From assembly GCA_965603355.1 (NCBI GenBank), contig CBFDCQ010000001.1:42350-106349 (forward strand): a DNA stretch of 64,000 nucleotides, in the 5' to 3' direction. This document shows positions 24,599 to 42,001 of the stretch, one piece after another. Under the pieces are notes generated by a model. The model saw nothing but the letters and a program-made list of their open reading frames with translations. It did no database searches and was not told where the DNA came from. How positions within the stretch are numbered: the stretch's first letter is position 1; each line of letters opens with the position of its first letter. The translations under genes and the position numbers were made by a program. This DNA comes from an uncultured bacterium. Lineage in GTDB: Bacteria; Hydrogenedentota; CAZGCA01; CBFDCQ01.

Positions 24599-26536
24599 AT
24601 GAGACTTGCGCTCGTTAGAATGTCCCTCCGCGCGAAGCTGGTGGCAAGCTTCCTCATCGTCGTGCTGATTACCGGGACTACCGCGATATTGGTGGGCGTC
24701 AGCCTAATCGCCAACGGCGTCATCAGGCAAGCTGAAGATAACGTGCGTCTCGATCTGAACTCGGCCCGCGAGGTCTATCAGGAAAGAGTACGCCAAATCG
24801 ACACCGTCCTGCATTTCACTGCGATCCGTTCCGTCATGGTGCGAGACGCGCTCATCAACAAAGACAGAAAGACACTTGGAACGACGCTCGAAGAAGTGCG
24901 GCAGGCCAGTGCGATGGACATCCTGACCATAACCGACGGTGAAGGGCGCGTCCTCCATCGATGTCAAAACCCTCAGGTTTATGCTGATGATCTAAGCCAA
25001 GACGAGTTCGTGAAACGGGTCCTGCGCGACCGGGAATGTGCAATGGGAACCACCCTTGTGCCCGCAGAGCAACTGGTGAAAGAGAGCCCGGAACTCGCGG
25101 AACGAGCGCGGGTCAAGTTCGTCCAAACCGAGAAGGCGAAACCCAGACCTGGAACTGAAGAGACGACAGGTATGATGATGAAAGCGGCAGTCCCCATCTT
25201 TGGCGACAGCGGCGATGTTGTGGGGGTGCTTTATGGCGGAGACCTGCTCAACAAGGATAACGAGATCGTGGACCGGGTCAAAGCCATCGTGTATCGGGGC
25301 GAACGGTACAAGGGCAAAGAGACCGGTACCACGACGATCTTCCAGGGAGACTTGCGCATATCCACTAACGTCAGGAACGATGACGGTAAGCGGGCGATTG
25401 GAACGCGGGTGTCGGCGGAAGTCAACGATACCGTGCTCGTGAAAGGTTTGCCCTGGGTCGGGCGGGCGTTCGTCGTGAACGACTGGTACATCGCGGCGTA
25501 CGAGCCGATACGGAACGTAAACGACGAGATCATCGGTATGCTCTATGTCGGTGTGCTCGAAGAGAAGTTCGCGGACATGAAGAAGAGGACGCTGTGGATA
25601 TTTGTAGGCATAACGATAGCGGGCGCGGTGGCCGCTCTGGCGGTGTCGTACCTGCTTGAGCTGAGCATTCTTAAGCCGATCAGGGAACTGGCCCGAGGCG
25701 CCCATGAGCTCGCCGGAGGAAATCTCGAGTACCGGGTTAAAACGGCCTCAAAAGACGAGATGGGTGAACTGGGGAAAACATTCAACCTCATGGCCGAGAG
25801 CATCAAACAAAGGGACAGGGAGCTTAAAGATAGGACGCGGATGATGGTCGAATCGAAGCGGCTGGCAACGCTCGGCCAGCTCGCCGCCGGCGTGGCTCAC
25901 GAGATAAACAACCCGCTCGGAGGCATATTGGTGTACGCACATCTTCTGCTCGAAGACACGGGCATCGACGATCCCAGACGCGAGAATATGTCGAGGATCG
26001 TTAGGGAGACCACCAGGTGCCGTGACATAGTGAGGAACCTGCTCGATTTTTCGCGGCAAACCAGCCCCCGAGTCGAGGAGGCGGATATTAACGGAATAGT
26101 CGAAGAGGCGCTCGCTATGACGGTCCAGCGGCCGCGGTTCAGGGACGTCAGAGTCGAGTTGGACTTGTGCAGGACGCTGCCGCATGTTATGGTAGATGTA
26201 TCGCAGATCGAACAGGTCTTCAGGAATATCATTCAGAATGCCGCCGAAGCTATGGACGGTGAAGGCAGCATAAGCGTGAGCAGCAGGCTGTCCCGTGAGG
26301 ATGGCATGGTGGAAGTCTCGATAAGCGATACGGGACCAGGCATAGAGATCGAGCATATGGAAAGGTTGTTTGACCCGTTCTTCACCACCAAGGAGGTGGG
26401 GCACGGTACGGGTCTTGGTCTCGCTGTCAGTTATGGTATAGTGGAGAGGCACGGGGGGCGAATCAAGGTCGAGAGCGAGCCGGGAGCAGGTGCTGGTTTT
26501 ATCGTGCAGCTGCCTGTCAAACAGGGGGGTAAGTAG
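24599..26536 (+). CDS. sensor histidine kinase (periplasmic or Cache-like sensor, HAMP, HisKA, HATPase_c)
   Basis: TM1 LVASFLIVVLITGTTAILVGVSL, a roughly 280 aa extracytoplasmic domain, TM2, HAMP (LKPIRELARGAHELAGGNLEYRV), H-box LAAGVAHEINNPLGGI, N-box QNAAEAM, and G-boxes DTGPGI and GTGLGLAV. Confidence 0.85.
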   Translation: MRLALVRMSLRAKLVASFLIVVLITGTTAILVGVSLIANGVIRQAEDNVRLDLNSAREVYQERVRQIDTVLHFTAIRSVMVRDALINKDRKTLGTTLEEVRQASAMDILTITDGEGRVLHRCQNPQVYADDLSQDEFVKRVLRDRECAMGTTLVPAEQLVKESPELAERARVKFVQTEKAKPRPGTEETTGMMMKAAVPIFGDSGDVVGVLYGGDLLNKDNEIVDRVKAIVYRGERYKGKETGTTTIFQGDLRISTNVRNDDGKRAIGTRVSAEVNDTVLVKGLPWVGRAFVVNDWYIAAYEPIRNVNDEIIGMLYVGVLEEKFADMKKRTLWIFVGITIAGAVAALAVSYLLELSILKPIRELARGAHELAGGNLEYRVKTASKDEMGELGKTFNLMAESIKQRDRELKDRTRMMVESKRLATLGQLAAGVAHEINNPLGGILVYAHLLLEDTGIDDPRRENMSRIVRETTRCRDIVRNLLDFSRQTSPRVEEADINGIVEEALAMTVQRPRFRDVRVELDLCRTLPHVMVDVSQIEQVFRNIIQNAAEAMDGEGSISVSSRLSREDGMVEVSISDTGPGIEIEHMERLFDPFFTTKEVGHGTGLGLAVSYGIVERHGGRIKVESEPGAGAGFIVQLPVKQGGK

Positions 26537-27898
26537 ATGTCAGCATCGTTTTCTATCCTTGTAGTAGATGATGAGGAGGTTATGCGCGACTGTTGCGTGC
26601 AGATCCTGTCCCGAGACGGATGCCGCGTTGAGGTGGCCCACGACGGACTTTCCGGGCTTGAGAGAATAAGGAAGGAGCCGTTTGACGTAGTCATACTGGA
26701 TTGGAAAATGCCGGGCCTGAACGGACTGGACCTGCTTGACCGGATCGCGCAAACAAGCGCGGATACTGTTGTGATAGTAATGACGGGTTACGCTTCAGTC
26801 GAATTTGCAGTAGAGGCAATGAGGCACGGCGCGTACGACTTCATACCGAAACCGTTCCCGCCACGGGTACTTCGCGGGATAGTGGCGCGCGCTCTGGAAA
26901 AGCGCGGCTTCGCCAGGGATACGGTTTGTCCACCGAGCGAGCTTGAGACGTTGCGCGGCGTAGACTCTCTTGTTGGAGAGAGCGTCGTCATGAAAGCTAC
27001 AAAACAGCTCGTTAAACGCGCCGCTGCCACCGACAGTACTGTGCTGATCGCCGGCGAGAGCGGTACGGGCAAGGAACTGGTTGCGCGCGCACTGCACCAT
27101 CACAGTGCGCGCAGAGATGGTTCGTTTGTCACGGTCGATTCCGGCGGGTTGGTCGAGAACCTTATCGAGAGCGAACTCTTTGGTCACGTCAGAGGAGCTT
27201 TCACCGGGGCCACGTCTACTCGACAGGGCAGGTTCGAACTCGCTCATGGCGGAACACTGTTCCTGGATGACGTATCCACCCTTGGCTGGTCCGTCCAAGG
27301 AAAGCTCTTGCGCGCCTTACAGGAACGTGAGATTACAAGAGTCGGCAGCGGCCAGGTCATCAAGGTGGACGTGCGAATTATCGCCGCGACAAACAGCGAC
27401 CTGCTCTCCGACGTGGCCGCGGGAGGATTCAGAGAGGACCTTTTCTACCGGCTAAGTGTAATCCCGATCAATCTGCCGCCACTACGGGAGCGCAAGGAGG
27501 ATATTCCTCATCTCGCCAGCTTCTTCCTGAGAAAGTACAACGCCAAGCGTGCCGCAACCAAGGTCAGGAGCATCTCGGAAGAGGCGCTCAGGATGCTTGC
27601 TGACTACGATTGGCCCGGCAACGTGAGGGAGCTCGAAAATGTCATAGAGCGCGCGGTGGTAATGGCCGATAGCGAGACGGTCCGACCGCTCGACCTCGTC
27701 TGGCACCAGTTCTCATCCGCGGTTAGCCTCCGCGGCGCGCGGTCGGCCGGCGCGCGCCTTGAGGATATCGAAAAAGAACATATCAAGAGAACCTTGGCAA
27801 CGTTCAACAGGCACAAGGCCAAGACGGCTGACGCTCTCGGTATTGACCGCAAAACGCTCCGGAACAAGATGCGACGGTACAATATTGAGGAAGATTAG
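26537..27898 (+). CDS. sigma-54-dependent response regulator (NtrC family: REC, AAA+ sigma-54 activator, Fis-type HTH)
   Basis: REC segment ILVVDDEEVMRD...VILDWKMPGLNG, Walker A GESGTGKE, GAFTGA motif (RGAFTGATS), Walker B LFLDDV, and a C-terminal HTH (KTADALGIDRKTLRNKMRRY). Confidence 0.9.
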   Translation: MSASFSILVVDDEEVMRDCCVQILSRDGCRVEVAHDGLSGLERIRKEPFDVVILDWKMPGLNGLDLLDRIAQTSADTVVIVMTGYASVEFAVEAMRHGAYDFIPKPFPPRVLRGIVARALEKRGFARDTVCPPSELETLRGVDSLVGESVVMKATKQLVKRAAATDSTVLIAGESGTGKELVARALHHHSARRDGSFVTVDSGGLVENLIESELFGHVRGAFTGATSTRQGRFELAHGGTLFLDDVSTLGWSVQGKLLRALQEREITRVGSGQVIKVDVRIIAATNSDLLSDVAAGGFREDLFYRLSVIPINLPPLRERKEDIPHLASFFLRKYNAKRAATKVRSISEEALRMLADYDWPGNVRELENVIERAVVMADSETVRPLDLVWHQFSSAVSLRGARSAGARLEDIEKEHIKRTLATFNRHKAKTADALGIDRKTLRNKMRRYNIEED

Positions 27899-27913: not shown

Positions 27914-27936
27914 TTTTTCCCCGCCAAGGGGAAAAA
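27914..27936 (+). promoter_or_regulatory. inverted repeat: candidate enhancer (UAS) for the NtrC-type activator, or a terminator hairpin
   Basis: TTTTTCCCC-gccaa-GGGGAAAAA (9-bp arms) lies 16 nt after the regulator stop and about 125-140 bp upstream of the sigma-54 -24/-12 element. Confidence 0.35.
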
Positions 27937-28056
27937 CTCCCCCAAAAACCTCCCCTTGTCAACCTTCGCAGGAAACTCATCCCGGGCATTGAGATCCGAC
28001 GTTAGGGCTTGTCCTGAGCCGATTTGGCCCGATGCCCACATTGCTCCAGCACCCTG

Positions 28057-28075
28057 CTGGCACAAAAAATGCTAA
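28057..28075 (+). promoter_or_regulatory. candidate sigma-54 (-24/-12) promoter
   Basis: cTGGCAC-aaaaa-aTGCt compared with the consensus TGGCAC-N5-TTGCW. The GG and GC are correctly spaced and sit about 55 nt upstream of the 28127 start. Confidence 0.5.
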
Positions 28076-28126
28076 TACTGATGAAACGAGAGGCCACAAG
28101 GACAGGATGCAAACGTTGGGGACCCA

Positions 28127-29278
28127 ATGGAGATTAGTGGTGCAACTGTCCTCGTCATTGACGACGAGGAATCGATGCGCGATTCCTGTTATCAGGCGCT
28201 GACGAAGGAGGGGTATCGTGTCGAGACGGCGGTGGACGCGGAGAGCGGCTTGCGCAAGGTGCGCGAGTTATCTCCCGACATCGTGCTCGTGGACCTCAAG
28301 ATGCCCCGCGTTGGTGGAACGGAAGTGTTGAAAGAGATAACCGCAATAGACCCGACGATCGTTGCAGTAGTGATCACGGGTTACGCAACGGTCGAATCGG
28401 CGGTCGAGGCCATGAAATGCGGCGCATACGATTTCCTTCCCAAACCTTTCACTCCGGACGAGCTCCGAATCGTCACGAAAAGAGGCCTGGAAAAGCGACG
28501 GCTGAGTGTCGAAATGGAGGCTCTTCGCAGGGAAAATGAGAGGATGAGAGAGAACTTCGTGACGGTTGTCACGCACGAAATGAGAGCGCCGCTGGTCGCG
28601 GTCGAACAGTACCTTGAAGTGATGCTGAAAGAGATGGCGGGCGATGTCACCGAGAAGCAGAAGGAGATACTCGAGCACAGTCGCAAACGAGTCGAGTGGC
28701 TGCTTACGCTGGTGAACGAATGGCTGAGCATGTCTCGCATCCAGCGGGGGAAAATAGTCGAGAGCCTCGAGACGGTAAAGATGCGGGAACTGCTCGAAGA
28801 ATCGGCCGCCCTGGTCAAGCCCCAAGCTGACGAGAAGGATATCAATATAGAGATCGAGGTGGCGAACGGAGCCGAGTCAATTGAAGGCGACATGGACGCT
28901 CTGAGCCACGTTTTCATGAATCTGGTGAGCAATGCGGTTAAGTACAACCACGAGGAAGGTTCTGTTTGCGTCAGAGCGATTGACAAGGACGATAGCATTG
29001 CCGTGGAGGTTGAGGACACGGGCGTGGGGATTCCCGAAGGTAGCTTGCCGTTCATTTTCGATGAGTTCTTCCGGGTAAAAACCGACGAAGGGCGGCGCGT
29101 GACGGGCACGGGTCTGGGATTAACGGTTGTCAAGAGGATTGTCGAGGCCCATCGCGGTCATGTGACCGTCAAGAGCGCTGTAGGACAAGGCACCACGTTT
29201 GTTGTGTTCTTACCGAAGAAGCAAACGATAGCGGAGCCGGGCATGGCAGAGAAGACCGGCAGCGTGAGTGAATCATAA
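28127..29278 (+). CDS. hybrid response-regulator/histidine kinase (REC, HisKA, HATPase_c) with no sensor or TM domain
   Basis: REC segment VLVIDDEESMRD...VLVDLKMPRVGG, a coiled coil, H-box VVTHEMRAPLVAVEQY, N-box NLVSNAVKYN, and G-boxes DTGVGI and GTGLGLTVV. Its stop overlaps the start of the next gene (TAATG). Confidence 0.85.
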   Translation: MEISGATVLVIDDEESMRDSCYQALTKEGYRVETAVDAESGLRKVRELSPDIVLVDLKMPRVGGTEVLKEITAIDPTIVAVVITGYATVESAVEAMKCGAYDFLPKPFTPDELRIVTKRGLEKRRLSVEMEALRRENERMRENFVTVVTHEMRAPLVAVEQYLEVMLKEMAGDVTEKQKEILEHSRKRVEWLLTLVNEWLSMSRIQRGKIVESLETVKMRELLEESAALVKPQADEKDINIEIEVANGAESIEGDMDALSHVFMNLVSNAVKYNHEEGSVCVRAIDKDDSIAVEVEDTGVGIPEGSLPFIFDEFFRVKTDEGRRVTGTGLGLTVVKRIVEAHRGHVTVKSAVGQGTTFVVFLPKKQTIAEPGMAEKTGSVSES

Positions 29279-31169: not shown

Positions 31170-32588
31170 ATGGTTGAGTCAAGAAAAAACATTTGCCTTC
31201 TCTGCTCGCTCGGTTGCGGCCTGATAGTTGATCTGGAATGCGACGAGCCGGTCAACCTCGAGTATGACACGGAAAATGGCGTGAACCGAGGCAAACTGTG
31301 CGCGAAAGGTAATTACATTCTGGAGCTGCTGAACGACCCCTTGCGTCTTGATGTGCCCAAGAAAGACGGCAAACCGATCAGGTGGGAACAGGCGGCAGAT
31401 GAGGTGGCGGATGCCCTGCGTGCCGTTCAGGGCGGCAAGACTGCGGCCGTCGTGCTCTCCGGTGATGCGTCGTGCGAGGACGTCGGGTTGGCCTTTGCGT
31501 TTGCAGCCGATTGCACCGGAGCCGGCAAAGCTGCGATAAGTCTCCCCACCGGCGACGATAAGGTGGTGTCAGCACTCGCGGAAACGTCCGGCGGCGTTGC
31601 GCAGGCCACTCTGGACGATGTCGAGAACTCCGTGTGCACGATCGCCGTGGGGGATCCGTTTGCCAGATGTCCCGTTATAGCCGGGAGAGTTCTTGCCGCG
31701 CGAAATGCGGCCCGCGAGAACTCTCTCAACGTGGTCTCTCGAGAGAGCAACATGACGTCGCGGTTCGCTGCGACCCACCTCCTTGGACCCGAGCGAGATA
31801 GCATGCTGGATCTTGTTGCCGCAGTGGTGGAGGCGCGGGGCGGCGCGAAGGAAAAGTGGTTGAATCAACTGGTCAAGGGCGTGGATGCCGGTTCGGACGC
31901 GCAGAAATTGGCGAAGAGCTTCGTTGAGTCCGAGCGGGCGGTAGTGGTGTTGTCCACGGACGATCCGGTGGTCGCACAACTGGCGAACGCTCTCGTCAAG
32001 GCTGCCGGCGACACGAAGGGACTTTTCGCGCTGCACGATTACGGTAACGCGCGCAGTATTGCGGAGATTTCATCCGGTGACGTTTCGGCCGAGGACGTGA
32101 TCAAGTCTGCGGCCCGTGGGGAGATAGAGGTTCTGCTCGTACTGGGGGCAGATCTCGTGTCGTCATATCCGAACCTGGATGTGAACGGAGCGCTGTCTGA
32201 AGTGCAACTGCTTGTTGCGGGAGCACCGTTTCCGAACAAGACGACATCTCTGGCCGGCATGGTTCTGCCGACTGCGCTGTGGATCGAGCAGGATGGCACG
32301 TTCAATGGTGCTCAATGCCAGCGGGTCGTCGCCCCACCTGGAGGTGCAATGTCGTATGGCGACATACTGAAGGCCGTCGCCAAAGCGACGGGCGTTGAGT
32401 TGCGTGCACACGAAGCGCCAGAAGCGCTCGCGGAAGCGGCCCTTGACGAGGGCAAGGCGGCGGCAATTGCTAAAGCGGCTCGCGAGGAGGCAGTGACATC
32501 ACCCGTCGTGTCGACGGCAACGTGTTTTGCGGACGGTTCCCTAACGGACAGAGTGAGTTGGGTTAAGATGGTAGAAAGAGTTCCGTGA
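31170..32588 (+). CDS. FdhA/NuoG-like molybdopterin-oxidoreductase-family protein, short form (472 aa)
   Basis: N-terminal 4Fe-4S motif CLLCSLGCGL...C-x3-C (CAKGNY) typical of the MopB Fe4S4 domain, then the start of a MopB-like domain (PIRWEQAADEVADAL). About 250 aa shorter than catalytic FdhH/FdhA. Confidence 0.6.
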   Translation: MVESRKNICLLCSLGCGLIVDLECDEPVNLEYDTENGVNRGKLCAKGNYILELLNDPLRLDVPKKDGKPIRWEQAADEVADALRAVQGGKTAAVVLSGDASCEDVGLAFAFAADCTGAGKAAISLPTGDDKVVSALAETSGGVAQATLDDVENSVCTIAVGDPFARCPVIAGRVLAARNAARENSLNVVSRESNMTSRFAATHLLGPERDSMLDLVAAVVEARGGAKEKWLNQLVKGVDAGSDAQKLAKSFVESERAVVVLSTDDPVVAQLANALVKAAGDTKGLFALHDYGNARSIAEISSGDVSAEDVIKSAARGEIEVLLVLGADLVSSYPNLDVNGALSEVQLLVAGAPFPNKTTSLAGMVLPTALWIEQDGTFNGAQCQRVVAPPGGAMSYGDILKAVAKATGVELRAHEAPEALAEAALDEGKAAAIAKAAREEAVTSPVVSTATCFADGSLTDRVSWVKMVERVP

Positions 32589-33077
32589 ATGAAGAAGCTG
32601 TTTGTAGATCTCGATCTCTGCATAGGATGTCAAGCACATAGCGTCGCCTGCAGTCGCGTAAACCACGACATCCTGACGATGCAGAGCGGCGAGATACCGG
32701 AGGAAGGCACGCTGCCTGTCGTGTGCAGACACTGCGAGACCGCCGCGTGCGTCGCTGCTTGTCCGAACGAGTCGATGAAGAAGCACGAGGACGGCATCGT
32801 TAGGAGAAACATGGCGACATGCACCGGCTGCATGAGCTGTACGCTGGCGTGCCCGTTCGGGACGCTGACTCGCGGCATGAGACTGGCCCGGCACTCGTCG
32901 AGCAAGTGCGACCTGTGCGCGCCGAGGGTAGAACGCGGGCTTGAACCCGCCTGCGTTGCGACGTGTCCCACAAGCGCGCTACAGTTTAGAGAGGTTGAAG
33001 AGGTCTACGAGGCGAAAGACGTTCTCGTGGTGGGAGCACATACAATCGGACATAGCCCGTACATAAGGAGAGCCTAG
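32589..33077 (+). CDS. HycB-like poly-ferredoxin (4x [4Fe-4S])
   Basis: CIGCQAHSVAC, CRHCETAACVAACP, CTGCMSCTLACP and CDLCAPR...CVATCP. Size and cysteine spacing match HycB/HyfA. The ATG overlaps the previous stop. Confidence 0.8.
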   Translation: MKKLFVDLDLCIGCQAHSVACSRVNHDILTMQSGEIPEEGTLPVVCRHCETAACVAACPNESMKKHEDGIVRRNMATCTGCMSCTLACPFGTLTRGMRLARHSSSKCDLCAPRVERGLEPACVATCPTSALQFREVEEVYEAKDVLVVGAHTIGHSPYIRRA

Positions 33078-33096: not shown

Positions 33097-34035
33097 TTGG
33101 TGAGGATGATGAGTGCATTTGGCGTACCATATTTCCTGGCTGTGTTCGCCGTAACGGCTGTTGTAGGACTGGTGACGAGCTGGGTGGACAGAAAAGTCAC
33201 CGCGCGGGTGCAAGCGCGGGTTGGTCCGCCGTGGTTCCAACCGTTTGCGGATTTCGTGAAGCTGCTAGGCAAAGAGACGCTCGTGCCCGAAGGCAGCCGT
33301 CAGAAAGGCTTCCTCGTCGCGCCGCTGTTGGCACTCGTTGGCGTGTCGCTTGGCGCGGCGGCGCTCGTGTCAGGAGGTGTACTTGGCAAGGAAGGCTTTA
33401 TCGGAGACATAGTAGTTGTGCTGTACCTGCTCACGATACCGTCAGCGGCGCTGATACTCGGCGCGGCCTCGACCGGCAACCCTATGGCGTCTGTCGGGGC
33501 GAGTCGCGAGATGAAGCTCATACTCGCGTACGAGCTGCCGTTCCTTATCGTAGTGCTTACGGCCGTGTACAAAGCGCAGGCCGGTTTCATGATCGACAAG
33601 ATCGTGGACTACCAGGCTCAGAACGGCGCGTTCATATGGAGCATTTCGGGAGTCATCGGGTTCATCGTTGCGATACTGTGCATTCAGGGCAAGCTGGGGT
33701 TGGTGCCGTTTGACGCGCCGGAGGCTGAGCAGGAGTTGATGGGCGGTGTTCTTACAGAGTACTCCGGCGTCCCGCTGGCGCTGTTCAAGCTCAGCAAAGC
33801 GATGATGCTGAGCGTTCTGACAGTCTTTCTGGCGGTCATATTCTTTGGCGGAATGCAATTCAAGGGCATCGATATCCTGTGGAGTATCTTGAAGTATCTC
33901 GTGCCGGTAGTGCTGGTGGTCTTGATCAGAAACACGAACCCGAGGTTGAGGATTGACCAGATAATGAAGCTGTTCTGGGGTCCGCTTACGGTGCTGGCCC
34001 TGATCGCTCTGTTGCTGGCAAGGTTCAACCTCTGA
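33097..34035 (+). CDS. membrane subunit NuoH/HycD/MbhM-like
   Basis: Polytopic membrane protein, 312 aa, with a conserved NuoH-like segment (GLVPFDAPEAEQELMGGVLTEYSG). Confidence 0.85.
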   Translation: MVRMMSAFGVPYFLAVFAVTAVVGLVTSWVDRKVTARVQARVGPPWFQPFADFVKLLGKETLVPEGSRQKGFLVAPLLALVGVSLGAAALVSGGVLGKEGFIGDIVVVLYLLTIPSAALILGAASTGNPMASVGASREMKLILAYELPFLIVVLTAVYKAQAGFMIDKIVDYQAQNGAFIWSISGVIGFIVAILCIQGKLGLVPFDAPEAEQELMGGVLTEYSGVPLALFKLSKAMMLSVLTVFLAVIFFGGMQFKGIDILWSILKYLVPVVLVVLIRNTNPRLRIDQIMKLFWGPLTVLALIALLLARFNL

Positions 34036-34055
34036 TCTTTATGGAGTGAAGCGTT

Positions 34056-34487
34056 ATGAGCGTTAAGATGTGGGGACTGAAGAAGTCGCCCTGGGTGTAC
34101 CACGTAGCGCTGTCACCCTGCAATAACTGCGACATAGAGATACTCGACCTGCTGACTCCGAGATTCGATGTGGAACGTTTTGGAATAAAGCTCGTGGGCA
34201 GTCCCAGACACGCTGACGCCCTGCTTGTTACCGGATCCGTAAACCGGCACGTTCTCCCCAGGTTTGTCGAGCTATACAAGCAGACGGCGAAACCGTGCGT
34301 GGTGTTCGCGATAGGCTCCTGCGGTCTGTCATCGACTATGTTCAGAGATAACTACAACATCGTCGGCCCCATTGACAAGGTCGTGAGACAGATCGATCCT
34401 AACGCCATCATCGCGTACGTGCCGGGATGTCCGCCAAAACCGGAGGCGATGATCTCCGGAGTGGTCAAGGCGCTGAGCGTGTTATAG
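34056..34487 (+). CDS. [NiFe]-hydrogenase small subunit, NuoB-like (HycG/MbhJ/EchC-type)
   Basis: SPCNNCDIE (compare HycG SCNGCEIE), GSCG and GCPPKPE provide the four Cys of the proximal [4Fe-4S]. Confidence 0.85.
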   Translation: MSVKMWGLKKSPWVYHVALSPCNNCDIEILDLLTPRFDVERFGIKLVGSPRHADALLVTGSVNRHVLPRFVELYKQTAKPCVVFAIGSCGLSSTMFRDNYNIVGPIDKVVRQIDPNAIIAYVPGCPPKPEAMISGVVKALSVL

Positions 34488-34499
34488 GAGAGGTGAAGT

Positions 34500-34955
34500 A
34501 TGAGTGGTAGCGTCGCGCTGACAGCGGTCAAAGAGAGCATGCCGGCAAAGATTTTGGAAATCGTGGAGAGATCTCCCGCGCGCGCATACGTATACATTGC
34601 GCCGGAGGAGATAGTCGCAGCGTCGCGGTTCATGTTCGAGGAGTGCGGTGTGCGGCTCGCCACGGTGTCCGGTGTAGACACGAGGAGCGGCATCGAGCTG
34701 GTTTACCATTGGATGAGCGCGAAGGACCATCAGTTCATCATGATCAAGACAAAAGTCAAGAAACCGTTCCCGGAAATAGACTCGGTCGGCTCGTTTCTGC
34801 CGGCGGCGGTTTGGATTGAGAGGGAAATCCACGACATTCTGGGTGTGGTTTTCAGAGGGCACCCTGATTTCAGGAAACTCATTCTTTCAGATGATTGGCC
34901 TGAGGGAATCCACCCCTATAAGCGCGGCGTGAGATTCGGGGAGTTTAAGGCATGA
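34500..34955 (+). CDS. NuoC-like subunit (MbhK/EchD-type)
   Basis: 151 aa NuoC/30-kDa-subunit fold (LVYHWMSAKDH...WIEREIHDILGVVFRGHPD). Overlaps the large-subunit gene by 4 nt. Confidence 0.8.
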   Translation: MSGSVALTAVKESMPAKILEIVERSPARAYVYIAPEEIVAASRFMFEECGVRLATVSGVDTRSGIELVYHWMSAKDHQFIMIKTKVKKPFPEIDSVGSFLPAAVWIEREIHDILGVVFRGHPDFRKLILSDDWPEGIHPYKRGVRFGEFKA

Positions 34956-36184
34956 AAAGGACGATAGTACCGCTCGGCCCGTTTCACCCTCTGCTGGAGG
35001 AGGCGGAGCATTTTCAGCTTTACGTCGAGGGTGAAACTGTCGTTGACATAGACATGCGCATCGGCTACATGCACCGTGGAATTGAGAAGATGAGCCAGTA
35101 CAAGACGTTCGACCAAGTACCTTTCACCGTCGAGCGCATCTGCGGCATCTGCTCCACCTCCCACCCGATAGCCTATGTGAACGCCGTGGAGGACCTCGCG
35201 GGAATAGAGATCCCAGAGAGAGCGAAGTATATCAGGAACATCGTCGCCGAGCTTGAACGGTTGCATAGTCACATGTTATGGGTGGGACTCGCCGGTCACT
35301 TCATCGGGTACGATACGGTGTTCATGTGGGCCTGGAAATATCGGGAGCCGATTCTCGACATCTTCGAGCTAATAAGCGGCAATCGCAACCATTATGCTAT
35401 GATGAAGCCCGGCGGTGTCAGACGCGACATCAAGGAGGAGGATTTCCCTGCGATAATCTCGATGCTCGACACGCTGGCTAAGGGCAATGAGCTTTTCACC
35501 GGCGCGGTCGTGGATGACCCGGTAATTCACGCGAGGACAAAAGGCGTCGGAATCCTGAGTAAGGAGGATGCGATTTCCTACGGTACTGTCGGGCCCACTG
35601 TGCGAGGTTCGGACATATCTGATGATATTCGGACGGATGACCCGTACGCGGGTTACGACCTGGTCGATTGGGACGTGATCACGTACGAGGGAGGAGACGT
35701 GTTCGCCAAAGCGGCAGTAAGGTTGCTGGAGAACTTCGAGTCGATCAAGATCATAAGGCAAAGCCTCGAGAAGATGCCGCCCGGACCGATTGAGACGGAA
35801 GTCAGGGAAATACCGCCCGGCGAGGGCGTCGGTCACGCGGAAGCGCCGCGCGGCGAGGTGTTCCATTATGTGCGCAGCGACGGGTCGGCCTGTCCCGTGC
35901 GACACAAGATTCGCGCGCCAAGCTTCGTGAACATACCGTCGTTCAAAGCTACCTGCATCGGCGAGACTATAGCCGATGTCGCTCTTATCACGGCTTCGGT
36001 TGACCCGTGCTATTGCTGCACCGAACGGATGGCGGTGGTTGACCGACAAACTGAGGACGTTCTCATGTCCGGCGAAGAGTTGGTGCGCATGAGCCGGGAG
36101 AAGACCAAAGAGATCAAGGAGGGGCTTGGGCAGGAAACGCCCATTGACAAGCTTGCCCGTAAACTGCAGAGAGGAGAGTTGTAG
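34952..36184 (+). CDS. [NiFe]-hydrogenase large subunit, group 4 (NuoD-like; MbhL/EchE/HycE-type)
   Basis: N-terminal Ni-Fe ligand motif RICGICSTSH and C-terminal DPCYCCTER (DPCxxCxxR), both intact. 410 aa. Confidence 0.9.
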   Translation: MKRTIVPLGPFHPLLEEAEHFQLYVEGETVVDIDMRIGYMHRGIEKMSQYKTFDQVPFTVERICGICSTSHPIAYVNAVEDLAGIEIPERAKYIRNIVAELERLHSHMLWVGLAGHFIGYDTVFMWAWKYREPILDIFELISGNRNHYAMMKPGGVRRDIKEEDFPAIISMLDTLAKGNELFTGAVVDDPVIHARTKGVGILSKEDAISYGTVGPTVRGSDISDDIRTDDPYAGYDLVDWDVITYEGGDVFAKAAVRLLENFESIKIIRQSLEKMPPGPIETEVREIPPGEGVGHAEAPRGEVFHYVRSDGSACPVRHKIRAPSFVNIPSFKATCIGETIADVALITASVDPCYCCTERMAVVDRQTEDVLMSGEELVRMSREKTKEIKEGLGQETPIDKLARKLQRGEL

Positions 36185-36234: not shown

Positions 36235-38064
36235 ATGAACTTGCTCCTTTATCCGATACTGGTTCCGCTTGCGGGCGGACTGTTGGCGCTACTGATGCCG
36301 CGTGCGCTCAAGGGGTTGAGAGAGCTGGTCTGCATTGTGGCGACCGGCGCGACAGTCTACCACGCCGCGCAGATAGTGAGGATAAGCAGCCTCGGCGAGC
36401 GCCTTGACTTCTCACGTCCCTGGTTGAGCATAGAGAACTTCGTGTTCTCGATTAGCCTGCGCGCGGACGCGCTTAGCCGGTTCATCGTCCTGGCTGCCTC
36501 CATATTCGGGCTGCTAATTGTCCTGTACTCCATAGGATATATGAGGAACAAGGACAGGCTCCCCGAGTATTACGCTTACATTGTCTGGACAGTCGCCGCG
36601 GCTAACGCCGCATTGCTGGCGGATAACCTCATACTGCTGCTCGTTTCGTGGGAAGTGGTCACCGTGCTGCTGTTCTTCCTAATCACGATAGCCGGCGAAG
36701 GGTCGCCGCCGGCCGCCGGGAAGACTTTTGTAATGATCGGTGCGGCGGACTGCGCCATGCTGCTCGGAATAGTCCTCATTTGGCGGGTGATGGGCACTCT
36801 CGAGATCAGTGCATTGAGACACGTACCGATGCAGACCGGTATGATGCATCTGATTTACGCGCTTCTGCTTGCCGGGGCAATTACAAAAGCGGGCGCTATG
36901 CCGGGCCATTCCTGGATACCGAAAGCGGCGGAGATTGCGCCGACATCTGTCATGGCGTTTCTGCCGGCGGCGCTCGACAAGCTGCTCGGCATCTATCTGC
37001 TCGCCCGCATGTCGCTATACATGTTCGCGCCCAGCGAGGCAATGAAGCTGGCGCTGCTTATCATAGGCGCTGTCACTATCATATTGGCAGTGATGGCGGC
37101 CCTCGTGCAACACGAGCTCAAGAAGCTTCTGTCCTGTCACGCAGTAAGCCAGGTCGGCTACATGGTAATGGGTATCGGAACCGGCGTCCCGCTCGGCATC
37201 ATTGGCGGCCTTTTCCACATGTTGAACAACGCAATCTACAAATGTTGCCTGTTCCTGACCGCCGGCGCCGTCGAACGTAAAGCGGGTACCACTGAGCTTG
37301 AGAAGCTCGGTGGACTTGCCTCGGCAATGCCCGTCACGTTCGGCGCATGCGTGATCGCGGCGTTAGCCATCTCCGGAGTGCCGCCGCTCAATGGGTTCGC
37401 GTCCAAATGGTTCGTCTACCAGGGGGTGCTCCAGGTTGGTCGTCCGGTGTTCGTCGTGGCGGCGATGTTCGGCAGCGCGCTGACGCTTGCGTCGTTTATA
37501 AAGGTCATCTATTCGGTGTTCCTCGGCAAGCGCCCGGAATCGCTCCGTTCCATCAAGCCGGTAGGTTTCTCGATGACTTTTCCGATGATCTTCCTCGCGC
37601 TATTGTGCATAGTATTCGGTGTATTCTACCATCTACCAGTCAAACAGTTCATAGCCCCCGCGCTCGGAAGTCAGGCGCTGGTATTACCGCAACTTGGATT
37701 GTGGGACTCGACTCTTGCTACCGGGCTGATCGTTATTGGGCTCGTGATCGGGATCATCATCTATCTGTTTGGGACGGCCTTCAAAGGGCGCACCACGTCT
37801 ATCTTCGTGGGCGGCGAGACACTGGACGAGGAAGAGAGCCGCGTACCTGGCACGGGCTTTTACGAGACGGTAACCTCCATGCGCGGTCTCGGCACGATCT
37901 ATCGGGACGCGGAACAGGGTGCGTACGACCTGTACGTGCTTGGGGCACGGTACGGACAGAAGATCGTTGACGTGTTCAGGGGAATGCATACGGGTATAGT
38001 GTCGACGTACGTCGCTTTTTGCGTGGCTGGACTTGGCATAATACTGTTCTTACTGTTGAGGTAA
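36235..38064 (+). CDS. Mrp/NuoL-family antiporter-like subunit (MrpA/MbhH-like), 609 aa
   Basis: About 16 TM helices and conserved NuoL/MrpA segments (WEVVTVLLFFLI, HAVSQVGYMVMGIG). Confidence 0.85.
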   Translation: MNLLLYPILVPLAGGLLALLMPRALKGLRELVCIVATGATVYHAAQIVRISSLGERLDFSRPWLSIENFVFSISLRADALSRFIVLAASIFGLLIVLYSIGYMRNKDRLPEYYAYIVWTVAAANAALLADNLILLLVSWEVVTVLLFFLITIAGEGSPPAAGKTFVMIGAADCAMLLGIVLIWRVMGTLEISALRHVPMQTGMMHLIYALLLAGAITKAGAMPGHSWIPKAAEIAPTSVMAFLPAALDKLLGIYLLARMSLYMFAPSEAMKLALLIIGAVTIILAVMAALVQHELKKLLSCHAVSQVGYMVMGIGTGVPLGIIGGLFHMLNNAIYKCCLFLTAGAVERKAGTTELEKLGGLASAMPVTFGACVIAALAISGVPPLNGFASKWFVYQGVLQVGRPVFVVAAMFGSALTLASFIKVIYSVFLGKRPESLRSIKPVGFSMTFPMIFLALLCIVFGVFYHLPVKQFIAPALGSQALVLPQLGLWDSTLATGLIVIGLVIGIIIYLFGTAFKGRTTSIFVGGETLDEEESRVPGTGFYETVTSMRGLGTIYRDAEQGAYDLYVLGARYGQKIVDVFRGMHTGIVSTYVAFCVAGLGIILFLLLR

Positions 38065-38072
38065 CGCAGACC

Positions 38073-38627
38073 ATGATATTCTTGCTATATTTGCTGCTCC
38101 TTTTCATGATCGCCGGCGCGATAATCGCCATTGAGACGAAAGACCTGCTCTCGAGCGTGATATGTGTAGGCGCGATCGGACTGGGACTGGCAATAATCTT
38201 TCTGTTGCTTGGCGCACCTGACCTCGCCATCGTACAAGTAGTCGTGGAGGTTCTCAGCCTCGTGTTGCTGCTGCGCGTGGTGGTTAAGCGTGAGGACGTT
38301 ACCATCGCTCACCGGTACAGGTATGGCGAGGTGTTCGCGACCGCGACCGCGCTCGTGTTTTTCGGCGTATTCATTGTGCTGGCCTCCATGGCCTACAAGG
38401 AAATGCCGGCGTTTGGTCAACCGATCCTCAATGTATCGCAGCGTTACATCGCGGAGGGTATGGACAAGGTGGGAGCGCCAAACCTCGTCACAGGGATCTT
38501 GCTGGATTACCGCGCCTACGATACCCTCGGTGAGGCAACAGTTATTTTCACAGCAATCATTGGCAGTTTGGTCATCCTGAGAAAGAGAGGCAGGATACGT
38601 CATGAAGGGGATGAGCCTCATAGTTAG
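38073..38627 (+). CDS. small Mrp-module membrane subunit (MbhD/MrpB-N-like)
   Basis: ATG with RBS GAGG directly after the MrpA-like stop. Hydrophobic 184 aa protein, and the only subunit type of the Mbh/Mrp set otherwise unassigned here. Confidence 0.55.
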   Translation: MIFLLYLLLLFMIAGAIIAIETKDLLSSVICVGAIGLGLAIIFLLLGAPDLAIVQVVVEVLSLVLLLRVVVKREDVTIAHRYRYGEVFATATALVFFGVFIVLASMAYKEMPAFGQPILNVSQRYIAEGMDKVGAPNLVTGILLDYRAYDTLGEATVIFTAIIGSLVILRKRGRIRHEGDEPHS

Positions 38628-39033
38628 GACTATAACCCGGCTGCTTGTCGGGTTCATTCTCGTGTACGGCGCCCACATCGTGCTGTACGGGCATCTGACG
38701 CCGGGCGGCGGTTTTGCCGGCGGCGTTATGCTGGCGTGTGCACTGATACTTCTCGTCCTGGCTTTCGGCAAGGAAGCGGCGCTGGATATCGTGAGCGAGA
38801 ATGCCGCATCGGCGTGGGACTGCATAGGAGCTCTTCTGTTCCTGCTTATAGCCCTGCTTGGGCTGACGGGAGGCTATTTCTTCAGGAACGTCCTCGACAA
38901 GGGCAAACCGTTCGACCTGCTCAGTGCAGGGACTCTTATGTGGAGCAATATCGCGATCGGGATCAAGGTAGGCGCGTGCTTGTTCCTGGTATTTCTGGTG
39001 CTGGCGGCCTTCAGGATACGCGACGAAGGGTAG
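38602..39033 (+). CDS. MnhB/MrpB-domain subunit (MbhE-like)
   Basis: MrpB hallmark HLTPGGGFAGGVMLA and four TM helices. Confidence 0.7.
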   Translation: MKGMSLIVRTITRLLVGFILVYGAHIVLYGHLTPGGGFAGGVMLACALILLVLAFGKEAALDIVSENAASAWDCIGALLFLLIALLGLTGGYFFRNVLDKGKPFDLLSAGTLMWSNIAIGIKVGACLFLVFLVLAAFRIRDEG

Positions 39034-39040
39034 GGAAGCG

Positions 39041-39385
39041 ATGGGACCGTATATTCTGTGTTCGATAATTCTCTTGCTCGGTGTGTACGCTGTCGTGGCG
39101 AAGAAGAACCTGATAAAGATCATCATTGGACTCCTTATCATCGAGTACGCCGTGAATCTTATGCTTGTGCTCATCGGATACAGGGCCGGCGGAGAAGCTC
39201 CGATACGTACGGAGGCAGCTCAGGATGCGGCCCGTATCTTGGTCGATCCGCTACCGCAGGCGCTGATCGTAACCTCGATAGTCATCGGTCTCGGATTGAC
39301 CGCGATGGTGGTGGCATTGTGCATTCGACTATACGAGAAGTACGGCACGTTTGACGTGCTTCTCATCAGAAGGTTGAGAGGATGA
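39041..39385 (+). CDS. MnhC/MrpC (NuoK-like) subunit
   Basis: 114 aa with three TM helices and a NuoK-like pattern (IIIGLLIIEYAVNLMLVLIGY). Confidence 0.8.
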   Translation: MGPYILCSIILLLGVYAVVAKKNLIKIIIGLLIIEYAVNLMLVLIGYRAGGEAPIRTEAAQDAARILVDPLPQALIVTSIVIGLGLTAMVVALCIRLYEKYGTFDVLLIRRLRG

Positions 39386-40881
39386 ATGATAATCACGTTC
39401 TGCCGTTGTTTGTAGCCCTGCCGTTAGGGGCAGCGTTTCTCATCGTGCTCGTTGGCAGGTTGCGTGAGTCGCTCTCGGATCTCCTGGGCACGCTGATTGC
39501 GGCGATTCTGGTGGTCTGCTCCCTGCAACTGGTCGGCGCACCGGAGCAGGTGTACCACATGGGAGGGTGGGAGCCGCCGCTGGGCATCAACCTGGTCTCA
39601 GACGCGCTGAGCACGCTCCTGCTGGTTATCGTCAGCAGCGTCAGCTTGCTCGTGTGCATCTATTCGATCACCTATATGAAGGGTTACACCAGCAAACCGA
39701 AGTACTACGGCCTTTTGATGCTGATGATAGCGGGTATGAACGGCGTAGTGCTGACCGGCGACCTGTTCAACATGTATGTGTTCCTTGAAATCGCTGCAAT
39801 CGCATCGTACGCGCTTGTGGCGTTCGGCACTGAGCATGAAGAACTAGAAGCTTCGTTCAAGTATCTCGTGCTCGGAAGTGTAGCCTCGAGTTTCATCCTT
39901 TTCGGAATAGCTTTAATGTATAGCGCAACAGGTACGTTGAATCTCGCTGACATCGCGAACACAATCGACAAGAACGGGCTCAACGCCGTCATGACTATGG
40001 CCTCGGCAATGTTCATAGCCGGTTTCGGGCTTAAGGCGGCCATGGTGCCGTTCCACGCCTGGTTGCCGGACGCACATCCATCTGCGCCCGCGCCCATATC
40101 GGCCATGCTTTCCGGGCTGCTGATCAAGGCGCTTGGCGTGTACGCTCTGGTAAGGCTGTTCTACAGCGTAATCGGCGTTGGCGGAATGTATACGAACATA
40201 CTGATCGGCCTTGGAATCCTGTCAATGGTGGTAGGGGTAATTCTTGCGGTAGGCCAGTGGGATTTCAAGCGGCTGCTCGCCTATCACAGCATAAGCCAGA
40301 TGGGATACGTCATGCTCGGCGTGGGCCTCGGCACTCCGCTCGCGTTGGCGGGAGCGTTGTTTCACCTGCTCAACCACAGCATGTTCAAATCCTTGCTGTT
40401 CCTGTGCTCCGGTGCGGTTGAGCACAGCACGGGTACGCGCCGACTGAAGGAACTTGGCGGGCTATGGTACAGAATGCCTGTGACCGGTACAACCTGTTCT
40501 GTTGCATCCCTATCGATTTCTGGAGTCCCGCCGTTCAACGGCTTCTGGAGCAAACTCCTGATCATCGCCGGGGCCGTACAAGCGGCGGACCGGTTTGGTC
40601 CTGTGGCATACGTACTCGCGGCCATCACTGTGCTCGTGAGTTTCCTTACGCTTGTATCCTTTGTCAAAGTGCAGCGTTACGTTCTCTTCGGAGCGTTGTC
40701 GGAGAAGCTGAAGAAGATACGGGAAGTTCCGGCGGCGATGTGTATCGCGCTTGTCGCGTTCGCGATACTGTGTCTCGCGCTGGGTGTTTTCTGTCCGTTC
40801 GTTCTGGAAAAGCTGATCTATCCCGCGCGGGACGTCGTGCTGGATAAAGCCGGTTATATAGGTCTGGTACTGGGGAAATAG
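39382..40881 (+). CDS. MnhD/MrpD (NuoM/N-like) antiporter subunit
   Basis: 499 aa polytopic protein with conserved MrpD/NuoN segments (FHAWLPDAHPSAPAPISAMLSG, LAYHSISQMGYVMLGVG). Confidence 0.85.
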   Translation: MNDNHVLPLFVALPLGAAFLIVLVGRLRESLSDLLGTLIAAILVVCSLQLVGAPEQVYHMGGWEPPLGINLVSDALSTLLLVIVSSVSLLVCIYSITYMKGYTSKPKYYGLLMLMIAGMNGVVLTGDLFNMYVFLEIAAIASYALVAFGTEHEELEASFKYLVLGSVASSFILFGIALMYSATGTLNLADIANTIDKNGLNAVMTMASAMFIAGFGLKAAMVPFHAWLPDAHPSAPAPISAMLSGLLIKALGVYALVRLFYSVIGVGGMYTNILIGLGILSMVVGVILAVGQWDFKRLLAYHSISQMGYVMLGVGLGTPLALAGALFHLLNHSMFKSLLFLCSGAVEHSTGTRRLKELGGLWYRMPVTGTTCSVASLSISGVPPFNGFWSKLLIIAGAVQAADRFGPVAYVLAAITVLVSFLTLVSFVKVQRYVLFGALSEKLKKIREVPAAMCIALVAFAILCLALGVFCPFVLEKLIYPARDVVLDKAGYIGLVLGK

Positions 40882-40897
40882 AACGAGGTTAGACCTG

Positions 40898-41383
40898 ATG
40901 AGACGGATCGTACATTTCATTGTAGCTCTGATTGTCTGGCTACTGCTCACGTGGAGCGTGACCGTCCAGAACGTGATTGCCGGCGTCATCGTCGCGGCCC
41001 TGAGCGCAGCGCTGTTCGGTCACTTTTTCCCGAGTGACTCGAGGCTCATGCTGAATTTCAGCCGAGTCTTGTGGTTCCTTTACTACATCCCCGTGTTTCT
41101 GATTCACTGCTTCAAAGCCAACCTGGATGTCGCGTACCGAGTGCTGCACGTGAACGTGCCTATACGCCCCGGCATTGTGAGGGTTAAAACGACGCTCAAG
41201 AGCGATATGGCGTTGACATTCCTGGCAAACTCCATAACGCTGACGCCCGGCACGCTGACGGTGGACATCATCGGTAATGACATGTACATCCACTGGATAA
41301 ACGTGGCCAGCGACGATCCGGAAGAACAGACGCTTATTATCGTGAAGAGGTTTGAGGATATTCTCAAGAGGGTGTTCGAGTAA
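40898..41383 (+). CDS. MnhE/MrpE (MbhA-like)
   Basis: 161 aa with two N-terminal TM helices and an MrpE-like C-terminal domain. Confidence 0.7.
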   Translation: MRRIVHFIVALIVWLLLTWSVTVQNVIAGVIVAALSAALFGHFFPSDSRLMLNFSRVLWFLYYIPVFLIHCFKANLDVAYRVLHVNVPIRPGIVRVKTTLKSDMALTFLANSITLTPGTLTVDIIGNDMYIHWINVASDDPEEQTLIIVKRFEDILKRVFE

Positions 41384-41652
41384 TGATGATTACCGCACCG
41401 CTGCTATTCATGGCCCTGCTCGTGTTCTCGTCCTTCCTGTGCCTTTACAGAATAGGTGCCGGACCCACTGCGCCCGACCGCACGGTAGCGATCGACATTC
41501 TCGGCACGCTCGTGGTGGGCTTCTGCGCGATCATGACGTGGCAAACAGGCAAGGCGTTCTACATGAACATAGCAATAACATGGGCGCTGCTCAGTTTCAT
41601 AGGCACAATAGCGCTGGCCAAATACCTGGAGGGGCGTGGATTCGATGAGTGA
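41383..41652 (+). CDS. MnhF/MrpF (MbhB-like)
   Basis: 89 aa with three TM helices (ALLVFSSFLCLYRI...). Overlaps its neighbours. Confidence 0.7.
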   Translation: MMITAPLLFMALLVFSSFLCLYRIGAGPTAPDRTVAIDILGTLVVGFCAIMTWQTGKAFYMNIAITWALLSFIGTIALAKYLEGRGFDE

Positions 41653-41998
41653 AACCGTGGGGTTGGTCATAATCGTCGTGGGCGTCCTGTTTGATCTGCT
41701 CGGTTGCATAGGACTGGTTCGTCTTCCAGACATATACAACAGGCTTCAGGCGGCCACAAAGTGCGTGACGCTCGGTACGTGCATGATACTTGTCGGTGTA
41801 GCGATCAAGATCGGGGTCGGGGAGGGCGGCGCTAAAGCGATCATCTGTGCCATCTTTGTTCTGCTCACGTCCCCAGTTGGAGCACACGCACTGGCGCGCG
41901 CGGCCCACAAGTCCGGGATAAGACTCTGGGAGGGCAGTGTGGTTGACAAGTACCTTGAAGTGGATTCCGGCAAGGAGGTCCCTGGAGCTAAGGTGTAA
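41636..41998 (+). CDS. MnhG/MrpG (MbhC-like)
   Basis: 120 aa with an MrpG N-terminus (GLVIIVVGVLFDLLGCIGLVRLPDIYNRLQA). Confidence 0.75.
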   Translation: MDSMSETVGLVIIVVGVLFDLLGCIGLVRLPDIYNRLQAATKCVTLGTCMILVGVAIKIGVGEGGAKAIICAIFVLLTSPVGAHALARAAHKSGIRLWEGSVVDKYLEVDSGKEVPGAKV

Positions 41999-42001
41999 CA
42001 T

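Follow-up and report, generated by a model that had tools for sequence, protein, structure and literature searches.

The subject of this study is a 64,000-nucleotide stretch of DNA from an uncultured bacterium of the Hydrogenedentota (contig CBFDCQ010000001.1, positions 42,350 to 106,349; hereafter the window), in which a gene for a hybrid histidine kinase with a receiver domain (REC-HK; 28127..29278, + strand) heads an operon for a group 4 [NiFe]-hydrogenase. A gene for a stand-alone CheY-like receiver (42707..43105, + strand) follows the hydrogenase genes, and genes for a membrane-bound Cache sensor kinase (24599..26536, + strand) and an NtrC-type sigma-54 activator (26537..27898, + strand) precede that of REC-HK. 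We propose, with a probability of roughly 0.6, that these four proteins form a two-tier two-component circuit built around a sigma-54 operon.

In the proposed circuit, the periplasmic Cache domain of the sensor kinase would sense an extracytoplasmic ligand, and the kinase would phosphorylate the receivers of both the activator and REC-HK, which have a helix-1 surface in common. The phosphorylated activator would bind the observed GGGGA-N6-CCCC element at -130 and open the sigma-54 promoter of the operon. One transcript would then cover REC-HK and 17 hydrogenase genes and would probably extend to the stand-alone receiver. By analogy with the Leptospira kinase LvrB, phosphorylation of its receiver would free the kinase core of REC-HK, and this core would phosphorylate the stand-alone receiver. 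Having no output domain, the latter must act through protein contacts. Since the first tier would induce the second, the circuit would amount to a feed-forward or feedback loop, which could delay, sharpen, or limit the expression or activity of the hydrogenase.

The new elements of this work are the definition of a predicted promoter and enhancer, a sequence-based wiring of the four proteins, the reading of the operon's first and last genes as a probable cognate pair, and the tentative placement of REC-HK in the class of Rec-controlled kinases. The four genes constitute a widespread cassette in many, mostly uncultured, bacterial phyla. We found no published description of such a cassette in full-text literature searches on hydrogenases and kinases, and the paper on the sigma-54 regulome of D. 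vulgaris does not mention hydrogenases.

The putative receiver-controlled kinase and its predicted partners

The original prediction described the protein encoded at 28127..29278 as a sensorless hybrid of receiver, HisKA, and HATPase domains, and this description holds. Within its 383 aa, Pfam identified three domains and no further one (Response_reg 8-114, HisKA 140-208, and HATPase_c 254-365), and a hydropathy scan found no membrane segment (Kyte-Doolittle maximum of 1.61 over 19 residues, within a receiver strand). The linker between the receiver and HisKA comprises 25 residues, is predicted to be helical, and has no space for an extra domain. Residues D12, D13, D56, T84, K106, and H150 as well as the N, G1, F, and G2 boxes are all present and invariant among 22 homologues; the catalytic motifs are THEMRAPL (containing H150), NLVSNAVKYN, DTGVGI, FDEFFR, and GTGLGL. 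In the AlphaFold2 (AF2) model, which has a mean predicted local distance difference test (pLDDT) score of 77, alpha5 of the receiver continues into a single helix (residues 110-169) that runs through H150 and is followed by helix 2 of the dimerization and histidine phosphotransfer (DHp) domain and by the catalytic and ATP-binding (CA) domain. The pLDDT drops to ~50-60 at residues 141-170, within and just beyond this helix. Among Foldseek results, the best full-length match was LvrB (8vc9; E = 6e-24, 22-24% identity), and the HK853 core fitted the kinase half with a template modelling score of 0.8, normalised by target length. Judged by sequence and model, every testable feature of REC-HK matches a soluble Rec-controlled kinase of LvrB-type architecture (REC, alphaS helix, DHp, and CA) with a DHp of the PhoR/HK853 type. 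Assignment as an LvrB orthologue (NF047466/NF047465) was rejected given the same 22-24% identity to 8vc9 and a score of 172.9 bits with the LvrA model against a cut-off of 1200; the LvrB model was not among the best NCBIfam matches listed for REC-HK.

LvrB has been described as the prototype of Rec-controlled kinases, in which receiver phosphorylation makes alphaS form a coiled coil and so frees the CA domains for autophosphorylation (PMC13269768). LvrA acts upstream and LvrC downstream of LvrB, and activation by receiver phosphorylation has been shown experimentally (PMC13269768). The LvrA-LvrB-LvrC system of pathogenic Leptospira (PMC13269768, PMC5863495) resembles the system described here in the Rec-alphaS-DHp-CA architecture of its central kinase, in protein length (~377-379 aa compared to 383 aa), and in having the phospho-Asp at position 56. 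The likeness may extend to topology, with an upstream sensor kinase that feeds the receiver and a kinase core that then phosphorylates a separate receiver protein. However, the downstream partner is a Rec-anti-sigma protein in Leptospira and a bare receiver here, the first-tier kinase in the window would also drive a sigma-54 activator that induces the second tier, and the target is a bioenergetic operon instead of virulence genes. An experimental precedent for the proposed topology is CheA3-CheS3-CheY3 of Rhodospirillum centenum, in which one kinase phosphorylates the receiver of a second kinase and this second kinase alone phosphorylates a single-domain receiver (PMC3868531). That system differs in its Che-type upstream kinase and chemoreceptor input, in the absence of a sigma-54 branch, and in its control of cyst development. 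By analogy with these cases, phosphorylation of the REC-HK receiver by another kinase may switch on autophosphorylation of REC-HK, and we infer such control because its helix-1 motif also occurs in the neighbouring activator.

The receiver of REC-HK shares 52% identity with that of the activator (126 bits) but only 30% with the terminal receiver. Receivers dock with kinases mainly through helix 1, for which the consensus reads DDEExxRDSCxQIL among 82 REC-HKs, DDEExIRDSCxQxL among 32 activators of the cassette, and DDDPDF......IL among 103 stand-alone receivers; the activator in the window carries VDDEEVMRDCCVQIL, in common with its REC-HK. This RDSC-Q motif is cassette-specific and common to REC-HK and activator receivers; to our knowledge, it is absent from NtrC, AtoC, and ZraR of E. 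coli. The DHp classes of the two kinases differ, with AHEINNPL (the NtrB/AtoS/ZraS type) in the Cache kinases and SHELRSPL (the PhoR/HK853 type) in the REC-HKs. The simplest and most likely wiring predicted from these patterns leads from the Cache kinase to the activator and to the REC-HK receiver, and from the REC-HK core to the stand-alone receiver. Control of REC-HK through its receiver by the upstream kinase, as presumed in the original prediction, is thus the most plausible arrangement in view of the 52% identity and the common helix-1 motif. The invariant Cys21 of REC-HK was considered as a redox sensor and set aside; since the helix-1 motif shared with the activators contains the identical Cys, it is more simply explained as part of the kinase-docking surface.

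A multi-step phosphorelay, as initially proposed for these proteins, does not apply in the strict (His-Asp-His-Asp) sense. No member of a histidine phosphotransfer (HPt) family was found among the four regulators or the remaining open reading frames (ORFs) covered by a scan of the window that was not exhaustive, and the architecture is of the LvrB type, which points to a two-tier kinase cascade instead.

The lone terminal receiver (42707..43105) reported earlier is indeed a receiver-only protein (132 aa), and the next gene, which encodes a lytic transglycosylase (43146-45236, - strand), is convergent. Pfam and clustering place it in the "LDIMM" receiver family; its best NCBIfam match, DVU0259/DivK-like, scores 73 bits where the cut-off is 160. 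It clusters with 41 receivers from other loci (35-46% identity), and 36 of the 42 cluster members are encoded directly upstream (-1) of a REC-HK gene. Because the terminal receiver belongs with these REC-HK-adjacent receivers, the first and last genes of the operon appear to be a conserved pair split by the structural genes, and the receiver is, by its sequence relationships, the probable cognate partner of REC-HK. This protein, earlier designated a phospho-sink or output, is therefore better regarded as the cognate partner of the kinase than as an unrelated sink. A receiver is also the terminal gene in the related operons L089 (60% identical, last after HycI) and L094. The predicted GTG start at 42707 has a ribosome-binding site, AGAGGGGG, and homologue lengths of 131-138 aa favour it over the ATG at 42635 used by gene callers, which gives the 156-aa protein of the public gene calls (P0121). 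A role as a chemotaxis CheY was rejected, as no che genes were found nearby among the ORFs scanned; "CheY-like" refers to the fold only. The exact protein occurs on at least 23 contigs from JGI, ENA, NCBI, and Logan assemblies, which places the organism in many metagenomes.

The first-tier proteins also have clear domain assignments in Pfam. The sensor kinase (24599..26536) consists of a transmembrane segment, a periplasmic dCache/sCache_3 domain, a second transmembrane segment, HAMP, HisKA, and HATPase domains, with transmembrane candidates near residues 14 and 331 and the DHp motif AHEINNPL. A PDB sequence search with the Cache domain returned only weak matches to chemoreceptor ligand-binding domains (E = 3e-5), from which no ligand can be inferred. 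The start codon of the activator gene (26537..27898) abuts the stop codon of the kinase gene, and the activator contains REC, AAA+, and HTH_8 domains, a Walker A motif, and GAFTGA at residue 220. None of the four regulators passes a curated NCBIfam cut-off. The best matches of the sensor kinase and the activator, to AtoS/AtoC and ZraS/ZraR, scored 266 against 646 and 424 against 714 (equivalog cut-offs), and the activator scored 293 bits with NF011958 (FhlA/HyfR) against a cut-off of 830.

Several other known systems share parts of this arrangement. AtoS/AtoC and ZraS/ZraR likewise combine a membrane kinase whose H-box is of the AHE type with a REC-AAA+-HTH_8 activator and a sigma-54 promoter, but the system in the window has a Cache_3 sensor domain and two extra components. 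FhlA/HyfR control the formate hydrogenlyase operons of E. coli, which are sigma-54-dependent group 4 hydrogenase operons with a remote enhancer; FhlA differs in that it binds formate through GAF domains, is not a two-component protein, and has no kinase tier. Hydrogen-sensing control of hydrogenase genes is exerted by HoxJ/HoxA with HoxBC in Cupriavidus necator and by HupT/HupR with HupUV in Rhodobacter capsulatus. The HoxJ and HupT kinases have a PAS domain and receive their signal from a group 2b regulatory hydrogenase, and their targets are group 1 enzymes. As in the window, [NiFe]-hydrogenase genes are accompanied by those of a soluble histidine kinase and an NtrC-family regulator; here, however, a receiver takes the place of the PAS domain as input, a membrane Cache kinase is added, and the targets are group 4 (elsewhere group 3) rather than group 1 enzymes. 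A hydrogen-sensing system of this kind was rejected for the window, as no second hydrogenase was found at 19.8-46.2 kb and REC-HK has no PAS domain. In RedCDEF of Myxococcus xanthus, two kinases are encoded alongside two receiver-only proteins, and the set includes no DNA-binding output; RedE lacks a receiver domain, and the phosphate flow is that of a phosphatase-type relay. It differs further in having no sigma-54 branch and no tie to redox enzymes.

Predicted promoter and enhancer, and operon layout

All genes between 24.6 and 43.1 kb lie on the + strand, and a 229-bp intergenic gap (27899-28126) separates the activator gene from that of REC-HK. This gap contains a predicted sigma-54 (-24/-12) promoter, TGGCACAAAAAATGC (28058..28072, + strand), 55 nt upstream of the REC-HK ATG. 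The motif TGGCAC-N6-TGC has its single match in the window at this site, with 0.34 matches expected over 128 kb (both strands), and the chance of a match in this gap on the + strand is estimated at roughly 6e-4. The strict motif also precedes REC or REC-HK genes, by no more than 100 nt, in 18 further loci belonging to other phyla.

A putative enhancer (upstream activating sequence), the palindrome GGGGAAAAACTCCCC (27928..27942, unstranded), is located 130 nt upstream of the -24 element. The palindrome, GGGGA-N6-CCCC, surfaced from aligned upstream regions and has a single exact match in the window. With at most one mismatch, it was found in 21 of 24 promoter-upstream regions, whereas the background frequency is 0.23 per kb. 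Its position is -123 to -131 in 14 other loci, and three loci have tandem copies at -100 and -79. Palindrome and promoter together recur in many phyla upstream of REC or REC-HK genes, spaced ~125-130 nt apart, and both are also kept in L091 and L005, the closest relatives of this operon. Where the hydrogenase genes form a separate unit, the palindrome precedes them, ~125-130 nt before a sigma-54-like element. This spacing of palindrome and promoter is typical of enhancers for NtrC-type activators such as the one encoded upstream, which may bind there; the conservation of both predicted elements supports placing the operon under it. A perfect 9-bp hairpin, TTTTTCCCC-GCCAA-GGGGAAAAA (27914-27936), lies directly 3' of the activator gene and overlaps the enhancer palindrome; no T run follows it. 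It may serve as a second half-site or as a weak terminator of the kinase-activator unit.

Consistent with the original prediction, REC-HK is the first gene of the operon: its gene follows the 229-bp gap, and its TAA shares one base with the ATG of the next gene (TAATG). The run comprises 19 genes with gaps of -46 to +50 nt, except for 93 nt before the last gene. Terminator-like matches were at chance level (16 compared to 15.5 expected), those on the + strand being all within coding regions, and a scan for sigma-70 promoters was likewise at chance level; both scans are thus uninformative on operon boundaries.

Distribution of the cassette and alternative readings

A protein search with REC-HK gave 6462 matches at E <= 1e-20. 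The 120 best matches listed all have the same three-domain architecture (359-444 aa), and among them those outside the window's own lineage are 52-60% identical to REC-HK. A scan of species-representative genomes found at least 583 relatives, of which the best 80 (42-57% identity) were taken as kinase-seeded loci and annotated by phmmer with the window's proteins and domains as queries. These 80 loci come from Planctomycetota, Latescibacterota, Aminicenantes, other Acidobacteriota, Chloroflexota, Verrucomicrobiota, KSB1, TA06, WOR-3, Cloacimonadota, Marinisomatota, Armatimonadota, Eisenbacteria, Elusimicrobia, Bacteroidota, Ignavibacteriales, Spirochaetales, and several Desulfobacterota orders. 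Two of the carriers, Desulfoferrobacter suflitae and Desulfacinum hydrothermale DSM 13146, are in culture and would be open to experimental work. Within 10 kb of REC-HK, a Cache-HAMP kinase is encoded in 55 of the 80 loci and an NtrC-type activator in 31, and a stand-alone receiver gene adjoins that of REC-HK in 66 of 79. Dual-receiver proteins occur in some cassette loci.

The claim that the four regulatory genes are one system tied to the operon is supported by the presence of [NiFe]-hydrogenase subunits within 10 kb in 50 of the 80 kinase-seeded loci (33 of the 42 loci that span at least 18 kb). The further claim that the system is dedicated to this hydrogenase holds locally but not elsewhere, where the neighbours vary. 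Beside the cassette we found group 3b-like hydrogenases (Fer4_22, FAD/NAD, small and large subunits), a group 3c enzyme (HdrCBA-MvhDGA; L063), a 3d-like enzyme (NuoEF with small and large subunits; L053), group 4 enzymes (the window, L001, L005, L006, and L064), and a Nuo-like cluster headed by NuoEF (L033). Cassette loci without a hydrogenase contain Hdr/ETF genes (L044 and L075), sets of FAD/NAD, molybdopterin, and Fer4_22 genes, or a malate/lactate/acetate-kinase cluster (L032), and formate genes are also among the neighbours. Across bacteria, the cassette accompanies redox and fermentation enzymes as a portable module and is not specific to hydrogenases. Its components are a Cache kinase, a Rec-controlled kinase, one or two small receivers, and optionally an NtrC-type activator, with a predicted enhancer and sigma-54 promoter, and more than 15 phyla have it beside hydrogenases of groups 3b, 3c, 3d, and 4 or related redox enzymes. 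The regulation of hydrogen metabolism is little known for the uncultured anaerobes predominant in sediments and the subsurface, and the newly established class of Rec-controlled kinases would gain a second large, tightly conserved family with a defined genomic context and a predicted upstream kinase and substrate. The proposed wiring and function are directly testable.

Receiver fusions were observed in several of these loci. An "LDIMM"-family receiver is fused to malic enzyme in L032 (12083-13834), L025, and L031; in L032, acetate kinase, two lactate/malate dehydrogenases, LarA, and a second malic enzyme are encoded downstream of the fusion gene. Fusions of receivers to a formate/nitrite transporter (one case) or to GcvH-like domains occur in L056 (4041-5405), L015 (12152-13345), L020 (17373-18158), L024 (14710-15483), and L035 (13898-14674). 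The receiver-GcvH-like fusions come after a second Cache-HAMP kinase in L020, L021, L024, and L035. A REC-HycI-like fusion in L018 was not used, as its Pfam score is below the gathering score and BLAST gave no confirmation.

Some observations weigh against the proposed circuit. Sampling in the reverse direction, with a metagenome scan seeded by the hydrogenase large subunit (80 loci at 61-85% identity, of at least 541), found REC-HK in only one of 28 Fer4_22/FADNAD/Mrp-Mbh operons with a visible upstream region (L091, 85%) and the terminal receiver in only one of 23 with a visible downstream region (L094, 71%). Co-occurrence of regulators and hydrogenases, as expected from the original prediction, was therefore found from the kinase side and not from the side of the Mrp-Mbh operons: most homologous hydrogenase operons work without these regulators, which are a lineage-specific addition to this hydrogenase type. 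Many cassette loci, such as those of Chloroflexota, lack NtrC-type and other DNA-binding regulators within 10 kb, so transcriptional control is not common to all forms of the system. A separate promoter could lie in the 93-nt gap that precedes the last gene of the operon. In L087, a receiver 58% identical to that of the window pairs with a kinase with six transmembrane segments beside a group 3b hydrogenase; the core of this kinase is only 33% identical to REC-HK, so this locus is not strong support for a conserved kinase-receiver pair. Finally, the predicted pairings are based on sequence classes and synteny.

The loci without a DNA-binding regulator and the receiver-enzyme fusions are also the reason to keep open a second tier that acts on enzymes instead of DNA. 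The phosphorylated stand-alone receiver, or REC-HK itself, might bind the hydrogenase complex and tune its activity or assembly, with the NAD(P)H module as a possible target. Such post-translational control would fit the malic enzyme fusions of same-family receivers (L025, L031, and L032), the fusions of other cassette-locus receivers to a formate/nitrite channel and GcvH-like domains, the translational coupling of REC-HK or receiver genes to the first enzyme gene in 12 loci (-3 to +34 nt), and the position of the receiver within the structural operon in the window, L089, and L094. However, this support is purely associative, with no interaction surface or co-varying subunit identified; the partner enzymes vary widely among loci, and proximity by itself is weak evidence since regulators must be encoded somewhere. 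We regard this reading as possible but unlikely. Its generalization is a comparably doubtful conjecture, in which the cassette would be a widespread, undescribed means of phosphorylation-dependent post-translational control of redox enzymes, with the "LDIMM" receiver docking on hydrogenases or on NAD(P)H- or ferredoxin-linked enzymes and gating their activity or assembly. If true, the sigma-54 branch would be an optional transcriptional add-on, and the fusions of receivers to malic enzyme, the formate channel, and GcvH-like domains would be fused forms of the same principle.

Three further explanations concern the role of the second tier or deny it one. The induced REC-HK receiver might serve only as the activator's competitor for phosphoryl groups donated by the Cache kinase, and the stand-alone receiver would drain these groups, giving negative feedback on, or adaptation of, operon expression. 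The same helix-1 motif in both receivers, the expression of REC-HK from a promoter that is predicted to be activator-dependent, and the absence of an effector domain from the stand-alone receiver are all in line with this, but a sink has no need of a full kinase core whose ATP-binding boxes are all invariant across phyla at 43-60% identity. The retention of REC-HK and its receiver in cassettes without an NtrC-type activator, and the fusion of same-family receivers to enzymes such as malic enzyme, also argue against a role in feedback only, which we consider rather improbable. Alternatively, the REC-HK core could phosphorylate the activator and lock the induced operon on, as its place as the promoter-proximal gene of an activator-dependent operon would allow. 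This positive feedback is very unlikely, given that its PhoR/HK853-class DHp is unlike the NtrB/AtoS-class DHp that normally serves NtrC-type receivers and that REC-HK persists where no such activator is nearby. That the two receiver genes flank the hydrogenase genes by chance and regulate something else has next to no probability. Although most homologous hydrogenase operons have neither gene and some receiver homologues (L088 and L090) are in unrelated contexts, the one-base overlap of REC-HK with the first hydrogenase gene, the [NiFe] subunits near the kinase in most seeded loci, the recurrence of the terminal receiver in L089 and L094, and the conserved enhancer and promoter all contradict it. 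The two-tier circuit remains the reading that we prefer.

The composite hydrogenase and surrounding genes

The operon encodes, by Pfam assignment, a group 4 Mrp-Mbh-type [NiFe]-hydrogenase in 17 genes (29278-42613, + strand). The first two genes encode a HydB/AsrA-like Fer4_22 subunit (29278-30333, + strand) and a HydG/AsrB-like FAD/NAD(P)-binding subunit (30330-31145, + strand); their matches to NCBIfam sulfhydrogenase beta/gamma models are below cut-offs, and the pair is a putative NAD(P)H module. They are followed by a truncated FdhA/NuoG-like subunit of molybdopterin fold (472 aa, without a Molydop_binding domain) and a Fer4_11 ferredoxin-like subunit (31170..33077, + strand). The core comprises a NuoH/MbhM-like subunit, the small subunit (Oxidored_q6), a 30-kDa subunit, and the [NiFe] large subunit (33097..36184, + strand). 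The membrane arm consists of MbhH-like, MbhD/E, and MnhB, C, D, E, F, and G subunits, followed by a 2x[4Fe-4S] NuoI/HycF-like subunit (36235..42613, + strand). The enzyme is thus a composite of a Mrp-Mbh-type group 4 core, a sulfhydrogenase-like HydB/HydG module, and the truncated FdhA/NuoG-like subunit. No curated NCBIfam model passes its cut-off for this composite, and most of the at least 541 related metagenome loci have no molybdopterin-like subunit. Between 19.8 and 46.2 kb there is only one pair of small and large subunits, of the group 4 type.

The large subunit (34952-36184) contains RICGICSTSH and DPCYCCTER, which provide all four Ni-Fe cysteines, so the enzyme is a true hydrogenase. 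It retains a C-terminal extension of ~48 residues beyond DPCYCCTER. Such an extension normally needs a HycI-type protease, and no HycI or hyp gene was found among the ORFs scanned in the window. In related operons (L089, L094, and most of L097-L168), HycI is encoded right after the last Fe-S subunit and before the terminal receiver, if one is present. ORF calls in Aminicenantes-type group 3b loci also suggest a putative fusion of the large subunit to a HycI-like protease (~580-600 aa; L008, L009, L013, L014, L020-L024, L034, and L038).

The surroundings of these genes were surveyed at window positions 1-19000 and 46000-62000, where no tRNA genes were found and the genes are of ordinary housekeeping types. 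The former region encodes a MoxR/BatD aerotolerance-type cluster, an HtrA protease, MgsA, and an oligopeptide ABC transporter. The latter contains, on the - strand, a type II secretion or pilus cluster (secretin, GspE, and GspK-like).

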